60,661 nucleotides of DNA from a virus (Duplodnaviria > Caudoviricetes), in IMG/VR virus record IMGVR_UViG_3300021425_002553, positions 1 to 60,661 of that record, one strand, 5' to 3'. Position 1 is the first letter of the stretch. Each line of letters opens with the position of its first letter. The position numbers were made by a program, and so were the translations under genes. The notes under the pieces are model-generated. The model ran no database searches and was not told the origin of the DNA. It saw only the letters and a list, made by a program, of their open reading frames with translations. This document shows positions 15,671 to 60,661 of the stretch, piece by piece.

Positions 15671-15744
15671 GGGCAAGTAGTTCAGTGGATCAGAACAGCG
15701 CACTTCTAATGCGTTGGTCGGGGGTTCGAATCCCTCCTTGCCTG
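15671..15744 (+). tRNA. tRNA-Arg(TCT)
   Basis: Cloverleaf; anticodon arm GCGCA-CT TCT AA-TGCGT; GGTTCGAATCC. Confidence 0.93.
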
Positions 15745-15769
15745 TTGGTTCAATAGAACCATAAAACGA

Positions 15770-15841
15770 GCCAGTGTAGCTCAGGGGTAGAGCAGGATAC
15801 TTGTAATATTCAGGTCGGGCGTTCAAATCGTCTCACTGGCT
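15770..15841 (+). tRNA. tRNA-Thr(TGT)
   Basis: Acceptor GCCAGTG/CACTGGC; loop CT TGT AA. Confidence 0.9.
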
Positions 15842-15845
15842 CTAA

Positions 15846-15984
15846 GACGGGGAATGAGTTCGCCCGCGACGGTGCTAACCACACTGTGATCTAGAGAGTT
15901 GGTTACTTTCTTCTTGCTCCATTACAAACTGTCAGAATGTTGGGTTTGAATGCCCCATAGCAAGCATTCGGATAAGTGTAATGT
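15846..15984 (+). ncRNA. candidate structured RNA (kissing loop plus pseudoknot)
   Basis: Several stems; loops CTAACCA and TGGTTA are complementary; CATTACA/TGTAATG closing stem. Confidence 0.55.
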
Positions 15985-15986
15985 TC

Positions 15987-16059
15987 GGGGAATTAGCTCA
16001 GTTGGTAGAGCACCTGCTTTGCAAGCAGGCTGTCAGGAGTTCGAGTCTCCTATTCTCCA
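15987..16059 (+). tRNA. tRNA-Ala(TGC)
   Basis: GGGGAAT/ATTCTCC acceptor; CCTGC-TT TGC AA-GCAGG. Confidence 0.95.
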
Positions 16060-16090
16060 TTCCCGAAAGGGAAATTTAGTGTGTAGGTAA

Positions 16091-16672
16091 ATGATTGATT
16101 CTTTTTCTGATTTTATATACGTTGCTGACGGTGCTCTGGAACCAGAGTTCTGTAAGAATGTTATTGAAAAATTTGAGAAAGATGATAACAGACACCAAGG
16201 TATCATTGCAGGGGGAAGAGTTAACACTTCTATCAAAGATTCTCTTGATATAAACATATCAAGGTATCCTGATTGGAAGGAAGAAGATGAAGTCTTTTTC
16301 AAGTCCCTTAATACTCATCACCGATTGTATATGGATGGTAAGTGGTCTTCCACTCACAACCCAGGCTTAGGTGATTTTACTGATTCTGGATATCAGATAC
16401 AGAGAACTCGTCCTGGCGCTGGATATATTTGGCACCATGATGCAATGTTTGGTGAAACTATTGGTGACCGAGGTGTGAGGTGTACCACTTACATATGGTA
16501 TCTTAATGATATCGATGAAGATGGATATACTGAGTTTATCGATGGTACTAAAGTTCAACCAAAGACTGGAAGGATTTGTATCTTCCCAGCAACTTGGACT
16601 TACATGCACCGTGGATATCCACCAAAGAATCAAACTAAGTATCTTGTAACTGGTTGGATGCACTCTAAATAA
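16091..16672 (+). CDS. 2OG-Fe(II) oxygenase (prolyl-4-hydroxylase-like)
   Basis: WHHD...YLND...YMHRG...KY motif set. Confidence 0.9.
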   Translation: MIDSFSDFIYVADGALEPEFCKNVIEKFEKDDNRHQGIIAGGRVNTSIKDSLDINISRYPDWKEEDEVFFKSLNTHHRLYMDGKWSSTHNPGLGDFTDSGYQIQRTRPGAGYIWHHDAMFGETIGDRGVRCTTYIWYLNDIDEDGYTEFIDGTKVQPKTGRICIFPATWTYMHRGYPPKNQTKYLVTGWMHSK

Positions 16673-16681
16673 AAAACTCGA

Positions 16682-16753
16682 TGGCGTGTAGCTCAACGGC
16701 AGAGCAGGGAGCTGTTAACTCTCTGGTTGCTGGTTCGAATCCAGCCACGCCAG
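16682..16753 (+). tRNA. tRNA-Asn(GTT)
   Basis: TGGCGTG/CACGCCA; GGGAG-CT GTT AA-CTCTC. Confidence 0.93.
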
Positions 16754-16756
16754 CTC

Positions 16757-16828
16757 GCAAGAATAGCTCAGCGGTAGAGCATCTCGTTTACACCGAGGCG
16801 GTCGGGGGTTCGATCCCCTCTTCTTGCA
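16757..16828 (+). tRNA. tRNA-Val(TAC)
   Basis: GCAAGAA/TTCTTGC; loop TT TAC AC. Confidence 0.93.
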
Positions 16829-16851
16829 TGTCTCAATTGCGCACATGAACC

Positions 16852-17100
16852 ATGATTACCGTAAGATGCAAACAGTGTAACAAGGAAATCAGAAGTGACC
16901 ACCACACTCATTGTTGTGGTTGTCCAAACATGATGACAGTAATTGAAGACAAAGTGACAGCCGTTGACCTTTCTAAGGTCGTTATGGTACAATCACAGAA
17001 GGAAACTAAACCAAAAAGTTACCTATCACAATCTGATCTCTCCTTTCAAGAAGAGAGGAGAAAACGTAAGGTCAGAAAATTGGACTTTGATGTTCGTTAA
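16852..17100 (+). CDS. small Cys-rich (Zn-ribbon-like) hypothetical protein
   Basis: CKQC...CCGCPN. Confidence 0.75.
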   Translation: MITVRCKQCNKEIRSDHHTHCCGCPNMMTVIEDKVTAVDLSKVVMVQSQKETKPKSYLSQSDLSFQEERRKRKVRKLDFDVR

Positions 17101-17286
17101 ATGTCACATCGATTCGATGAAATCAAACCTGATCACTACATCACCGAACGTCAGTGTCAGGAGATGATTGATAAGGCAATCGATAAACACAACAAAACTG
17201 CAACCATCATTAGTGCTTGTATAGGAACAGTTCTTCTGTTCTTCTATGCTCAAGGTCTGTTGATTGTGTTGGGGGTTTGGAAATAA
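17101..17286 (+). CDS. small membrane protein
   Basis: C-terminal hydrophobic helix. Confidence 0.7.
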   Translation: MSHRFDEIKPDHYITERQCQEMIDKAIDKHNKTATIISACIGTVLLFFYAQGLLIVLGVWK

Positions 17287-17374
17287 GGAAGATTGGCAGA
17301 GTGGTTGATCGCGTTGGTCTTGAAAACCAATAAGGGTAACACCTTCCAGGGTTCGAATCCCTGATCTTCCGCCA
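17287..17374 (+). tRNA. tRNA-Ser(TGA), CCA encoded
   Basis: Long variable arm; TTGGT-CT TGA AA-ACCAA; ends GCCA. Confidence 0.95.
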
Positions 17375-17448
17375 CGAGAAGTAGCTCAGTTTGGTAGAGC
17401 TCTCGCTTTGGGAGCGAGTGGCCGCAGGTTCGAATCCTGTCTTCTCGA
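17375..17448 (+). tRNA. tRNA-Pro(TGG)
   Basis: CGAGAAG/CTTCTCG; CTCGC-TT TGG GA-GCGAG. Confidence 0.95.
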
Positions 17449-17488
17449 TCGGGTCATCCCCAATAAATAAATCAACCACAAGAAACTG

Positions 17489-17659
17489 ATGGAAGTATTC
17501 TCGGTAGAAGAGTTTCAAGAGAACTGGGACGAGCTTATACAAAGGGTAGAGAACGGGGAAATATTTGGTATAGTAAACGAAAACGGTAACGCGGCAGTGA
17601 TGATGTCCACTGACGATGACCTTTATAAAATGTATACCGACCACAACGAAGCCTCCTAA
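17489..17659 (+). CDS. small protein, Phd/YefM antitoxin-like N-terminus (56 aa)
   Basis: MEVFSVEEFQENWDELIQRVENGEIFGIVNENGNAAVMMS resembles the Phd/YefM pattern; not in ORF track. Confidence 0.5.
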   Translation: MEVFSVEEFQENWDELIQRVENGEIFGIVNENGNAAVMMSTDDDLYKMYTDHNEAS

Positions 17660-17731
17660 GAGACTGTCGCATATTGGTTAATGCTCGCTCCTTATAAGGG
17701 CGCAAACTGGGTTCAATTCCCGACAGTCCCA
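17660..17731 (+). tRNA. tRNA-Ile(TAT)
   Basis: CGCTC-CT TAT AA-GGGCG; single mismatches in acceptor and T stems. Confidence 0.8.
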
Positions 17732-18603: not shown

Positions 18604-18810
18604 GTCACGGATTGACTCTAAAAATGCCCTGGTCGGTAGAAGGTCCCCTTCTTCCCGCGTTTCTTGGTTCGTAAAATCAAGTGGTGGAGTCACTAGACCC
18701 AACTGAGTTTACTAATTCTCCAAAGATTAGTTGGTGCGGATGGAGGAAACTCCCGCCTGAGATTTAGTTATTACTCAGTGATAAAAATAACTTGGCGTGC
18801 ATGGAGCCCA
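18604..18810 (+). ncRNA. manA/wcaG-like structured RNA
   Basis: Non-coding ~205 nt; repeated TGGYG-hairpin-pseudoknot units; lies after tRNAs and upstream of sugar-nucleotide genes, as described for these cyanophage motifs. Confidence 0.6.
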
Positions 18811-53340: not shown

Positions 53341-53444
53341 AATCAGGTTCTCGATTCATCCCTTCTCAAATGGGGACTTGACGGGACCCCTAAAATAGGG
53401 TAACATAAATACATGGACAGGTCAGGACTTCCTGACCGACCGAC

Positions 53445-53546
53445 TCCCCGTAAACCAAGACCTATAGGGAGTATAAACACGTCTTTCATATCCTCGCTAA
53501 GGGTGCGAGGAAATAGTAACTCCACCATTTCCCTGATGGTCTTACT
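53445..53546 (+). ncRNA. PhotoRC-II-like leader RNA of psbA
   Basis: Structured 5' UTR (CCTCGC/GCGAGG and ACCAT/ATGGT hairpins) directly upstream of phage psbA; TTGACG-N17-TAACAT promoter at 53378. Confidence 0.65.
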
Positions 53547-57966: not shown

Positions 57967-59664
57967 TGAAGGACGAACTCTACGACGTTGTAGAAAAAAC
58001 TATAGATTACGTATTCGAAGGTAGATACATGTTGAACATGTATGAATACCTGAAGAGTAGTAAGGTCTCTAGAACGGTCGTAGATGAGTTCCTGATGAGT
58101 TGTACTGCCACTGAGGTAAAGAACCTTGTACTGGACCTTGAGGGGTATCTAGAGGGTGGTAATGACGACATTCACAAACAATTACGTGAGGGTTATGGTC
58201 ATCTTGGTAAACCAGAGGCAAGGAAAATAAAAAATTATCTCATGAAAATTATTGAGGATGCAGAAAGATACCGACATGACAAGAGACCAGGAAGAAAACC
58301 AAGACTCTCTAAATAATGACAATGAATCTCCGAAAATGAATCGGGGGTTTGAATTATTACTCAGAAATAAAAAGAGGAGGACACCACCAAAGACTTTTCA
58401 GATAAGGTTTGGAAAGATGGTCTCCTTCTTTCGAAGAGAGTTCCATTTTTTCTTAGACATTCAGTTTGACATAAGAAAAAAGGAGGGCTAAGATGTTAGC
58501 AGTCACACTTACACTATCTTCGATCATTTCAATCATGTTTCTTTTGGTTGGAGGGGTCATCGGATATCTTTTAAAGGAGTATGTAATCGAGAGGAACTCA
58601 ACACTTATCCCAACACATCCAGAGATGTTTGATGAGAATGGAATGGTCATTCCAGACGACATCCTGGCAGTTAGATTCGAAAACAACCTTGAGGACTTTG
58701 ATTCTGAGGATTGACACCCACAACTAAGTATATTACACTGATACCATGGCAACAAAATCTTTCACCGTGAAAACAAAATTACCACCCAACCCTTTCGTAC
58801 ATGAGATCTTTGAGTTGGTTTCTAAACAGAGATCCAAAGCAAAAAAGGTTGAGGTTCTGAAGGAACAACGGTGTGATGCAATCACCGCTCTTCTCATCTG
58901 GAATTTTGATGACTCTGTAGTTTCTCTCCTTCCGACAGGAGTAGTTCCATACGAGAAAAATGAAGTTCCTGTTGGTACCGACCATACATCCCTTCGTAAA
59001 GAGTGGAAGAATCTTTATCACTTCGTAAAAGGTGGTAATGATAGTCTGTCGAAGACCCGTAGAGAATCCATGTTTATTCAGATTCTTGAGGGTCTTCATC
59101 CCCATGAGGCTGACATCCTGTGTCTTGTAAAAGATAAAGCACTCACATCAAGATTTAAAATTTCAAAAGAAGTTGTTTCAGAAGCATTCCCCGACATTCA
59201 GTGGGGTGGTCGGTCTTGAGTAAAGATATTAAATTCATTCACCAGGATTGTGATCCCTCTCTAGCGGACGACAAGACTCTTCCTTATTCTGCATATCTGG
59301 TTGAGTATCTTCAGGATGGTATGACCAAGTTTGATATTGTATCTGCTGCAAAACAAGTTGATATCTTTGATCATTATTGGGATAATTATCGTCATGATTT
59401 CAAAAACATGACACAGACAGAGGGTAGAATCAATCCAAAACTTTGGGGTAATTCAGAAAAGAAAAAGAAATGAGTAAAGGATTTGATGTGAATTTTGAAG
59501 GGATTGATATGGACCCAGATATGGTTCAGTCAATTCTCAAAAAATATAAAAAAATTAAGAAGTATCAAAGGTCAAACATCTTCGAGGTCAAGACGATGGA
59601 TGGTAAAGAGGACATCGTTTCTGAGATGATAAAGGAAGGTGAAGAATACGGTCCACTTGACTAA
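57966..59664 (+). CDS. operon of hypothetical proteins (57966-58316, 58336-58491, 58493-58714, 58746-59219, 59216-59473, 59470-59664)
   Basis: Tightly packed + strand ORFs; 58746 ORF carries RESMFIQILEGLHPHEA, a pattern seen in T4-like phages. Confidence 0.7.
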
Positions 59665-59685
59665 ATACTTGTAATGGTCTATACT
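59657..59685 (+). promoter_or_regulatory. sigma70-type promoter of the riboswitch locus
   Basis: TTGACT-N17-TATACT. Confidence 0.75.
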
Positions 59686-59691
59686 AGACCT

Positions 59692-59735
59692 ACGTTCAAC
59701 CCACTTCGGTGGGTCGCAAGTAAGTCGCGGAACGG
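59692..59735 (+). ncRNA. glnA RNA motif (glutamine riboswitch), aptamer 1
   Basis: CGTTC...GAACG P1; ACCCAC-TTCG-GTGGGT P2; CGCAAGTAAG junction. Confidence 0.8.
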
Positions 59736-59751
59736 AGCGTTAGCAATTAGA

Positions 59752-60324
59752 ATGATTTATTACACTTACTACTCTTACGAACCCTTTGGGCGAGGCTACA
59801 TTGGTAGCAGAAGATGTGAGTGTAATCCAGTGGAGGATGATTATTTTGGTTCCTATGGAGACAAAACATTTAATCCTTCTTGTAAAATCATTCTTACCGA
59901 ACATGCTACGAGAGAAGATGCAGTTGAAGCAGAAGTAAAACTCCATGAGTTTTATAAAGTTGATACTAATTCTCACTTTGCTAATAGGGCAAAGCAAACA
60001 TCTTCTTCATTTTCTTTCTGTTCACAGGGAGAACGAATTGGTGGAGGCAATCCCTGTTTTGGTAAAGTTCGTGTTACTGACGGTAAAAATGAACGAGTAG
60101 TTTATGAAGATGACATTCCTTCTGGGTGGTGGAAAGGTAGAAGTCGTAATCCAAAAGAATACGCTACTACTAAATCCATAACATGTACCAGAGGTAAAAT
60201 GTATGATGACTTTCTAAAAGATGTAAGTAAAGATGAATCTATTTTATCTTTACCTATTAGAAAACTTGCAGAAATTTATCAAACATCTCATACTTCTATT
60301 CGTCGCTGGAAAAAATCAATCTAA
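59752..60324 (+). mobile_element. GIY-YIG (Seg-like) homing endonuclease
   Basis: YYTYYSYE..GRGYIGSR..YFGS...EAE...FANRAK; HTH-like C-terminus; AT-rich. Confidence 0.82.
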
Positions 60325-60511
60325 TCGTTCATCCCATGGTAGAATTATTACTCTACACAACGCTGGCATGTCAGGACGCTGATGCTATAATCTTTCGGAT
60401 TAAAAAGCATGAGGGTCTGAAGCCAGAGTACAAGTTAGAGTTGGTAGAGACTATTAAAGATTCTGTACCACATTGTAATCACTACTGGGACGCAAACGAC
60501 TAAAGGAACGG
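60325..60511 (+). ncRNA. glnA-like aptamer 2 with expanded P2 loop
   Basis: CGTTCATCCC...GGGACGCAAACGACTAAAGGAACG. Confidence 0.6.
60336..60503 (+). CDS. 55-aa hypothetical protein inside aptamer 2
   Basis: MVELLLYTTLACQDADAIIFRIKK...HCNHYWDAND*; not in ORF track. Confidence 0.65.
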   Translation: MVELLLYTTLACQDADAIIFRIKKHEGLKPEYKLELVETIKDSVPHCNHYWDAND

Positions 60512-60545
60512 GCCTAAAAATCCAACTACTTTAGGAGTAAGACAA

Positions 60546-60661
60546 ATGAACACCTTAAATCTCATCAAGAAGCAAATCGAGAAGGCATCTGCTCTTCACG
60601 ATGCGCAAATTGCTAACACTGCATATCGTGGTGTTGAGTATACCTGCAAGCAGGATGGTGA
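60546..60661 (+). CDS. DUF4278-like protein (partial)
   Basis: AGGAG RBS; TAYRGVEY motif; this family is typically found downstream of glutamine riboswitches. Confidence 0.7.
   Translation, partial: MNTLNLIKKQIEKASALHDAQIANTAYRGVEYTCKQDG

Follow-up and report, generated by a model that had tools for sequence, protein, structure and literature searches.

How can a metabolite-sensing RNA fold when a complete protein-coding gene lies inside it? The question is raised by the end of a 60,661-nucleotide stretch of viral DNA (IMG/VR record IMGVR_UViG_3300021425_002553, positions 1 to 60,661; the window), a fragment of a T4-like cyanomyophage whose nearest relatives by blastn are Synechococcus phages. 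The initial annotation of this DNA, made from its letters, described a glutamine aptamer whose two halves enclose an open reading frame (ORF). The halves, CGTTCATCCC and GGGACGCAAACGACTAAAGGAACG, are present 151 nt apart and belong to the same unit of glutamine-I type, and the ATG at 60336 opens a 55-amino-acid ORF ending ...WDAND, with a TAA stop at 60501-60503, just as first described. Each half-motif occurs twice in the 60.7-kb window, once per riboswitch unit; in shuffled sequences the 5' motif is met 0.27 times on average and the 3' motif 0.00 times. The arrangement of genes within an aptamer is real and is widespread in relatives of this phage. The region reads as the 3' part of a composite riboswitch of the glutamine-I (glnA) type, with predicted ligand binding, which precedes a small DUF4278/IF17-like gene (Table 1). 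The earlier interpretation finds partial support: right in spirit, it was mistaken about a proposed stem extension and about the topology of the fold.

Riboswitch aptamers are usually viewed as compact and non-coding. Here whole conserved genes share nucleotides with the sensing core and the switch sequence in many marine phages, which raises the testable question of how a sensor folds when 150-800 nt of translated RNA lie within it. Glutamine riboswitches are already known, as are the doublets they form and their occurrence in cyanophages (parts of PMC2864571, PMC9481103 and PMC9964418). The crystallised glutamine-I aptamer runs P1, A, P2, CGGAAGUA, P3, GAAG, P1, with an E-loop formed by AGUA and GAA (sections of PMC5393176 and PMC6698751).

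Topology of the doublet

The locus was followed into relatives by two routes. A blastn search of phage genomes gave 417 records, most of which align in two pieces with an endonuclease gene skipped, and S-RIM44, S-SM2, S-B05 and Sf-CH5 have a like layout with an annotated coding sequence of 55-65 amino acids between the halves. From IMG/VR, 80 loci were anchored on the downstream protein and 120 were found by a junction pattern blind to hairpin content. The 206 loci yielded 195 that were parsed, 188 that were complete and 164 distinct elements.

The initial annotation gave the downstream unit, its 'aptamer 2', a P1 of its own, with CGTTC at 60326 pairing with GAACG at 60506. Two independent aptamers would then stand side by side, the second (P1 60326-30/60506-10) holding the ORF in its P2, and would bind glutamine separately. 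Doublets are indeed called tandem aptamers in the literature (portions of PMC5066625 and PMC9481103), the P1 strands are identical and both pairings can be drawn in 150/164 elements, and in the window the units lie 591 nt apart with RNAfold pairing a with a' locally in the upstream one. Neither unit alone, however, has both strands of the E-loop. AGUA is found in the upstream unit only and (G/A)AAG in the downstream unit only, and strand b is complementary to b'; it follows that a, P2a, J and b together with b', GAAG and c' make up one canonical aptamer, with everything else in its P3 'loop'. The outer aptamer accordingly comprises P1 (a:c'), P2a, the junction J CGCAAGUA, P3 (b:b') and an AGUA/(G/A)AA E-loop. 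On top of its P3 sits a second three-way junction, itself aptamer-like and formed by a P1-like helix (a':c), P2b and the junction J', which is CGCAAA in the window and CGCA(A/C)A in relatives.

Covariation separates the two topologies. Across the 164 elements the nested pairings a:c' and a':c each hold at 819/820 positions, as against 805/820 for a:a' and 807/820 for c:c' side by side, and the sole a:c' miss (L192) is a parsing error, the true strand being CGTTC. Fourteen elements break a:a' and c:c' and keep a':c and a:c'. In 13 elements a' reads CAAC(G/C) with c CGUUG, while a and c' are unchanged; L152 in addition has a CGUUU with c' AAACG, a compensatory change in a:c'. The flip in a' and c is found in combination with several types of P2a and five different linkers. 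Covariation between the units extends to their P3 strands, as AGUCG:CGACU (131 elements), AGUCA:UGACU (3), AGACU:AGUCU (2) and a single AGUUGACU:AGGCAACU, and in a class with an 8-bp P3 one pair is U-A in 13 elements and A-U in 7, making four or more compensatory types. In 15 natural compact sequences 93.2% of P3 cells are paired, compared with 26-54% when the strands are slid, one pair being AU in 5 and UA in 5; 6/500 shuffles reach the observed score for these sequences. On this covariation the side-by-side topology is rejected: the CGTTC of the split unit pairs with the upstream GGAACG and the upstream CGTTC with the downstream GAACG, around a shared P3 and E-loop. Comparison thus shows the element to be a nested doublet at the level of predicted pairing, and a pair of independent aptamers to be most improbable.

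Covariance models point the same way where the inserts are short. The Rfam Glutamine model finds a single 45-bit match (cut-off 35) on the compact doublet of one relative (L020), with P3 AGU/ACU enclosing a 39-nt insert, as against 25-28 bits for side-by-side parses, and the minimum-free-energy structure of this doublet in RNAfold is the nested fold. For another compact doublet (L113, class II) Rfam gives two matches, of 35.0 and 27.8 bits, as two separate aptamers would. The window element is homologous to those of the relatives position by position.

The structural hallmarks of glutamine-I aptamers are found in the doublet as a whole. A CGUUC/GAACG P1 closes a three-way junction, with compensatory changes in the 14 elements; a P2 hairpin directly follows CGUUCA in both P2a and P2b; and P3 is flanked by AGUA and GAA E-loop strands, there being one P3/E-loop per doublet, formed between the units. 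The downstream E-loop strand is AAAG rather than GAAG in 56/163 elements, the window included. One further position departs from the Rfam consensus, which has G at the third junction base and C after P1 where the doublet has C and G. A G follows both a' and c' in 164/164 elements and J' has C as its third base in 163/164; J was fixed as CGCAAGUA by the search pattern and the parser, so its C carries no independent count. These bases suggest a swapped long-range pair in both units.

Neither an advantage nor an expression platform had been recognised for tandem glutamine riboswitches (in the parts of PMC5066625 that treat them). The nested fold, together with the helix masking the Shine-Dalgarno (SD) sequence described below, offers concrete models for why glutamine riboswitches often come as doublets.

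Genes in the hairpin loops

P2b holds an ORF-sized insert in 149/164 elements and is a compact tetraloop hairpin with the same flanks in 15/164; in the subset derived from the junction pattern the figures are 99/113 and 14/113. By architecture, P2a is compact with an ORF-sized P2b insert in 99 elements, both hairpins carry ORF-sized inserts in 39, P2a alone does so with a compact P2b in 8, P2a has a 33-70-nt insert beside an ORF-sized P2b insert in 8, both are compact in 7, and in 3 an ORF-sized P2b insert and an endonuclease cassette are combined with either form of P2a. The compact P2b forms read CGTTCATCCC-tetraloop-GGGACGCA(A/C)ACGACTGAAGGAACGG, with an identical 3' half and no ORF. The sequence of the 3' half is therefore dictated by the RNA, and the WDAND tail of the protein is a by-product.

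The nested ORF is a real conserved gene under purifying selection, as the initial annotation had supposed. Among 120 unique WDAxD-type sequences the median ratio of nonsynonymous to synonymous substitution rates (dN/dS) is 0.295, compared with 0.61 and 2.10 when the other frames are read; the three codon positions have entropies of 1.02/0.52/1.39. The ORFs are 51-66 amino acids long and the inserts vary by whole codons, yet their junctions with the RNA are exact: the ATG directly follows UCCC in 142/148 nested ORFs, and the stop lies 1 nt before the E-loop strand (G/A)AAG in 146/148 (UGA in 95, UAA in 51). As had been noted for the window, the last five codons and the stop are read from riboswitch sequence, namely J', P3 and the E-loop. 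In L025 and L112, the sole exceptions to the placement of the stop, a TAG lies 29 nt earlier and extra sequence precedes the GGGA strand. A further ORF-sized P2b insert (L101) has its ATG a few bases later.

The protein has 143 homologous clusters, all unnamed or 'hypothetical'. It falls in a PHROG family of unknown function (504; so is 6471, the family of the P2a gene described below), and no Pfam family was found for it. An AlphaFold2 model has three helices with a confidence (predicted local distance difference test, pLDDT) of 80.9 and no fold match in the PDB at E <= 0.001. Reading the N-terminus of the window-type protein as a signal sequence or lipobox was dropped on inspection by eye, as it is short and acidic. 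S-B05 and RB11-B carry a different, 65-amino-acid variant in P2b (L003:1744-1941, L005:989-1186) with a signal-peptide-like N-terminus, MKYFILLLLLF...; the loop gene there appears to have been exchanged or to have diverged strongly, with the junctions unchanged.

The stem extension did not survive comparison. The initial annotation had prolonged P2 as TCCC-AT-GGTAG/CTACT-GGGA, burying the ATG. This duplex can be drawn in the window (-6.0 kcal/mol), but across 149 loci it does not exceed chance: duplexes between the insert's two ends average -6.1 kcal/mol, where shuffled partners give -5.7 and windows from the interior -5.5 and -7.3, and the full AUG is paired in 40/149 as against 37.6 in partner shuffles. 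Beyond UCCC/GGGA regular pairing is confined to the A of the AUG, whose partner is the U of the Trp codon (142/149). The extended stem is accordingly rejected as a conserved feature, failing to exceed the partner-shuffled and interior-window controls.

All three terminal loops of the doublet are able to hold genes. The P2a loop contains an ORF of 61-75 amino acids (phrog_6471) in 48/164 elements, intact in 46 (for example L008:1028-1225 and L138:1211-1408); in the window P2a is compact and lacks this gene. Its AUG lies in the 5' strand of P2a and its stop falls within the 3' strand, beside it or in AAGUAAG, and start and stop covary with the stem, as in UCUCAU:AUGAGA versus UCUUAU:AUAAGA. The P2a and P2b families are homologous over a Cys-x36-Cys core (hhalign probability 95.2%, E 2.5e-8, 39 columns). 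The window's P2a has A-U as its first pair where most relatives have U-A, a compensatory difference. A 47-nt insert, apparently non-coding, occupies P2a in L005 (903-975), L053, L056, L082 and L124, and may be either an additional hairpin or what is left of a former loop gene.

The third loop closes the a':c helix. This linker is 3-5 nt in 161/164 elements, and the endonuclease cassette which occupies it in the window is absent from most relatives. The same 591-nt cassette lies at the same site in RB11-B (L003) and Sf-CH5 (L004), and the contents of P2a and P2b differ among the three, which fits homing into an invariant riboswitch sequence. The riboswitch core can thus serve as an insertion site for a homing endonuclease, and may be the homing site proper. 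The N-terminus of the endonuclease looks GIY-YIG-like by eye. Phages free of the cassette have an intact GGAACGGAG-CGTTCATCCC site, a candidate target of the enzyme.

The predicted switch helix and translation of the nested gene

The segment CU(G/A)AAG, which holds the stop of the nested ORF, is complementary to a CUU(C/U)AG lying just 5' of the AGGAG of the downstream gene and overlapping it. The variable pair of this helix is G-C in 60 of 163 elements, A-U in 56, G-U in 47 and A-C in none. In the window, folding of 60480-60550 alone predicts this helix (60500-05 with 60529-34) and a further pairing of 60496-97 with 60537-38, at -9.1 kcal/mol; P2b and the masking helix also persist when the whole region is folded (z-scores -3.3 and -4.0). 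No terminator-like site was found between the nested ORF and the downstream gene (0 found). An SD-masking helix with no terminator suggests a translational switch. Its predicted direction, ON, follows by analogy with Synechocystis, where a glutamine-I riboswitch turns gifB translation on (as described in part of PMC6212724).

This covariation bears on another explanation, in which the sensor is dead in the ORF-bearing phages and its halves persist as code for the WDAND C-terminus and as a translation start region. Since the 3' half encodes protein, its conservation could come from the protein and not from the RNA, and the pieces in the window score below the Rfam cut-off. The 3' half is nevertheless kept in ORF-free variants, and changes in the coding part are matched in the non-coding 5' strands, the P3 partner and the pre-SD partner. 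Either UGA or UAA would serve as a stop, but which of the two is used covaries with the pre-SD base (0 A-C of 163). A dead sensor is barely credible on these grounds.

The downstream gene starts at 60546 after its AGGAG ribosome-binding site, as had been annotated. DUF4278 (Pfam PF14105, cut-off 25.3) scores 26-30 bits in seven of nine diverse orthologous positions, and window-type genes, of which 38 amino acids are visible in the window, score 19-20 bits. DUF4278 marks the IF17-type factors that inactivate glutamine synthetase (from the relevant portion of PMC6212724), and the label 'nitrogen-regulatory' given earlier to the gene's product would hold by that family link only. The locus may in this way bear on the control that infecting cyanophages exert over an IF17-like factor and, through it, probably over nitrogen assimilation by the host. 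Folds of the whole region also pair GUUCAU (59693-59699 or 60326-60332) with AUGAAC at the start of the downstream gene (60546-60551). This pairing was set aside as not general and is probably incidental, since it is absent where the gene starts MAQV or MAKV.

Together this evidence points to a nested composite glutamine-I riboswitch with a gene in its P2b loop, the stop of that gene lying in the segment which toggles between two partners, an ON response to glutamine, and mutual exclusion between translation of the ORF and folding of the RNA; we give this reading a probability of about 0.65. Glutamine would stabilise the aptamer fold, which would capture the switch sequence, free the SD and turn the downstream gene on, as in the cyanobacterial gifB riboswitch. 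A 30S subunit on the AUG at 60336 would cover strand c and the 5' strand of P2b, and initiation would require the inner P1-like helix and P2b to be open. A ribosome at the TAA at 60501 would cover P3, the E-loop, c' and the 5' strand of the SD-masking helix, dissolving the outer P1 as well. With ribosomes covering both places, translation of the nested ORF and folding of the sensor would be mutually exclusive. This exclusion, already proposed in the initial annotation, would hold on steric grounds, the start abutting the stem and the stop lying in the switch sequence. Termination would in turn expose the downstream SD, 30 nt further on, a translational coupling that would bypass or gate the ligand signal.

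It is possible that the overlap serves no purpose. The small gene, like the endonuclease, would have settled in a tolerant terminal loop and would use the riboswitch promoter, the switch acting whenever the RNA is free of ribosomes. The compact P2b of 15/164 elements indicates that the switch does not depend on the ORF; the family varies in its P2 loops in any case (61 distinct P2a hairpins, and the 47-nt non-coding inserts), a clearly selfish homing endonuclease occupies another loop of the same RNA, and the closing stem has no conserved extension. Set against this are junctions that keep their exact position even in ORFs that have diverged widely (an ATG offset of 0 in 142/148, stop in the switch in 146/148) and paralogous genes of like build in both P2 loops. 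The stop, moreover, always lies in the segment toggling between aptamer and SD-masking helix, so that translation cannot be neutral for the switch. A gene merely tolerated in the loop is therefore unlikely, if far from negligible. Regulatory use of the exclusion is what we infer, the exact junctions, the paralogous P2a gene and the stop in the switch favouring exploitation over tolerance.

It is attractive to go further and consider the element as a pseudo-symmetric, nested two-site sensor whose loops are gene slots, holding two paralogous Cys-x36-Cys genes and at times a homing endonuclease. These genes would not be passengers: initiation on a loop gene would compete with the inner junction, termination on the switch sequence would open the downstream SD, and ribosomes on the loop genes would gate the sensor, so that glutamine and translation together set the dose of the IF17-like regulator of glutamine synthetase during infection. 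If true, this would be a protein-coding riboswitch that integrates glutamine level and translational activity. The proposal is tentative, and we hold it at somewhat less than an even chance.

Several observations weigh against the nested riboswitch with mutually exclusive translation and folding. Everything in it beyond structure and coding is inferred. The sequences compared are related, and counts of elements or cells are not counts of independent events; a' and c vary in one way only, by a flip from G-C to C-G, for which few events may be responsible. The 15 elements that lack the P2b ORF indicate that the riboswitch does not need it. In the window no match is returned at this locus with Rfam's curated cut-offs, and in E-value mode only the upstream unit is found (59691-59738; Glutamine 25.1 bits, cut-off 35; Glutamine-II 26.1 bits, cut-off 33) and the split unit not at all, scores that fall below the cut-offs because the model is unable to bridge the inserts. 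In the window the strands of the outer P1 and P3 have to come together across ~800 nt (591-nt cassette and 151-nt ORF), and RNAfold's local closure of the upstream unit by a:a' adds to this; function is therefore less certain in the window than in cassette-free relatives, and the nested fold may form poorly in this phage. Contigs from four metatranscriptome libraries (Logan) cover parts of the locus, which speaks for presence only, as they may include DNA and carry no information on strand, ends or true transcription; gaps in their coverage have no significance.

Related RNAs and other features of the locus

Amongst known RNAs the closest is glutamine-I itself (glnA RNA, RF01739), with which the phage element shares the core (CGUUC/GAACG P1, A, P2 hairpin, CG(G/C)AAGUA, P3, GAAG), the E-loop, the DUF4278/IF17-like downstream gene, the occurrence in cyanophages and the doublets (passages of PMC2864571, PMC6212724, PMC5066625 and PMC9481103). 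The phage element differs in having genes in its P2 loops, a nested doublet with one shared P3/E-loop, and an SD-masking partner that has been found. Tandem riboswitches of the literature have aptamers a few nucleotides apart; the window's homologous units are 591 nt apart owing to the endonuclease cassette. Glutamine-II (Downstream-peptide motif, RF01704) has the same ligand pocket and is associated with short ORFs. The upstream unit scores below its cut-off and lacks its defining pseudoknot, and in Glutamine-II the ORF follows the aptamer rather than being enclosed by it.

In function the closest parallel is the mgtA leader of Salmonella, which contains mgtL; classical attenuation peptides are of the same kind. 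There too an ORF lies in a ligand-sensing leader and its translation decides the RNA structure (the part of PMC6460261 concerned). However, mgtL is a regulatory peptide of 17 codons read out by transcription attenuation, whereas the phage ORF is a conserved protein of 53-66 amino acids within an aptamer hairpin loop. It is not a leader peptide in that sense, and with no terminator found the readout appears to be translational.

A literature search, covering main texts, gave no account of an ORF inside the loop of a glutamine or other aptamer, nor of a nested doublet fold; Ames and Breaker 2011 and Ren et al. 2015 lay outside its scope, and prior mention is possible. The former (RNA Biol 8:82) is reportedly the primary paper on glutamine doublets and the latter (Cell Rep 13:1800) is said to be the crystal-structure paper, and both may bear on the nested fold. 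Group I and group II introns carry homing-endonuclease and maturase ORFs in peripheral loops and keep their core intact. In the phage element genes are likewise looped out from terminal loops, and one of them is a homing endonuclease. Unlike introns, it involves no splicing; the RNA that carries the genes senses a metabolite, and of the three loop genes two do not belong to mobile elements.

Table 1. Features of the riboswitch locus in the window (positions are those of the 60,661-nt stretch)
Feature	Position	Strand	Basis or remark
Sigma-70-type promoter-like site, TTGACT-17-TATACT	59657..59685	+	10/12 consensus matches; consensus match only
Compact glnA-like upstream unit	59693-59735	+	
Strand a, CGTTC; outer P1, 5' strand (partner 60506-60510)	59693..59697	+	Covariation
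P2a hairpin, ACCCAC-TTCG-GTGGGT	59699..59714	+	61 distinct compact P2a hairpins stay paired in relatives
Junction strand J, CGCAAGTA, with AGUA side of E-loop	59715..59722	+	Aligned to Rfam Glutamine consensus CGGAAGUA; E-loop assignment after parts of PMC5393176, PMC6698751
Strand b, AGTCG; P3, 5' strand (partner 60497-60501)	59723..59727	+	Covariation
Strand a', GAACG plus G; inner P1-like helix, 5' strand (partner 60326-60330)	59730..59735	+	Covariation; G after a' in 164/164
Homing-endonuclease cassette in a':c helix loop; coding 59752-60324, 190 amino acids	59738..60325	+	phrog_314, E 2.4e-8
Strand c, CGTTC; inner P1-like helix, 3' strand	60326..60330	+	Covariation
5' half-motif CGTTCATCCC	60326-60335	+	
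P2b, 5' strand; TCCC and A of start codon	60332..60336	+	UCCC/GGGA 159/164; A-U pair 142/149
Nested gene, 55 amino acids; Cys-x34-Cys, three predicted helices	60336..60503	+	phrog_504, E 2.9e-25, full length
P2b, 3' strand; TGGGA, within Trp-Asp codons	60486..60490	+	
3' half-motif GGGACGCAAACGACTAAAGGAACG	60487-60510	+	With next base GGGACGCAAACGACTAAAGGAACGG, 60487-60511; overlaps ORF end
Inner junction strand J', CGCAAA (codons Asp-Ala-Asn)	60491..60496	+	CGCA in 163/164
Strand b', CGACT; P3, 3' strand	60497..60501	+	Covariation
Switch sequence CTAAAG; P3 end and E-loop 3' strand; contains stop TAA 60501-60503	60500..60505	+	Alternative partner 60529-60534
Strand c', GAACG plus G; outer P1, 3' strand	60506..60511	+	Covariation
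Pre-SD partner CTTTAG, overlapping SD AGGAG (60533-60537)	60529..60538	+	
DUF4278-like small gene, cut by window end	60546..60661	+	phrog_545

The predicted transcript start of the promoter-like site coincides approximately with the first base of the riboswitch, and TTGACT...TATAAT stands in a like arrangement 5' of the element in relatives. The nested ORF contains a further promoter-like sequence at 60363-60391, CTGGCA-17-TATAAT preceded by a TG; such sites are not above shuffles in this region (4 versus 2.5). A longer ORF reading through the upstream unit from 59674 is probably spurious.

A scan of cellular genomes with the junction pattern listed 120 matches, nearly all of them due to chance; three carry the real element and look like phage-type loci in contigs of metagenome-assembled genomes, and the scan carries no weight on whether the element occurs in cells. 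Some metatranscriptome contigs join 59736-41 to 60486-88, as in relatives without cassette and ORF or with another ORF, one joins 59738 to 60324, as in a relative without the cassette, and one of 3.5 kb is the cassette-bearing form. In two runs the word depth is very high, to ~44,000 and ~5,400, at the riboswitch core (59708-59743) and the start of the DUF4278-like gene (60536-60607), a figure which sums contigs of many relatives and is no measure of expression.

Elsewhere the window carries a PhotoRC-II RNA (53433-53524, 73.5 bits), a wcaG RNA (18703-18806, 62.1 bits) and a cluster of eight tRNA genes (15671-17731), all typical of T4-like cyanophages.

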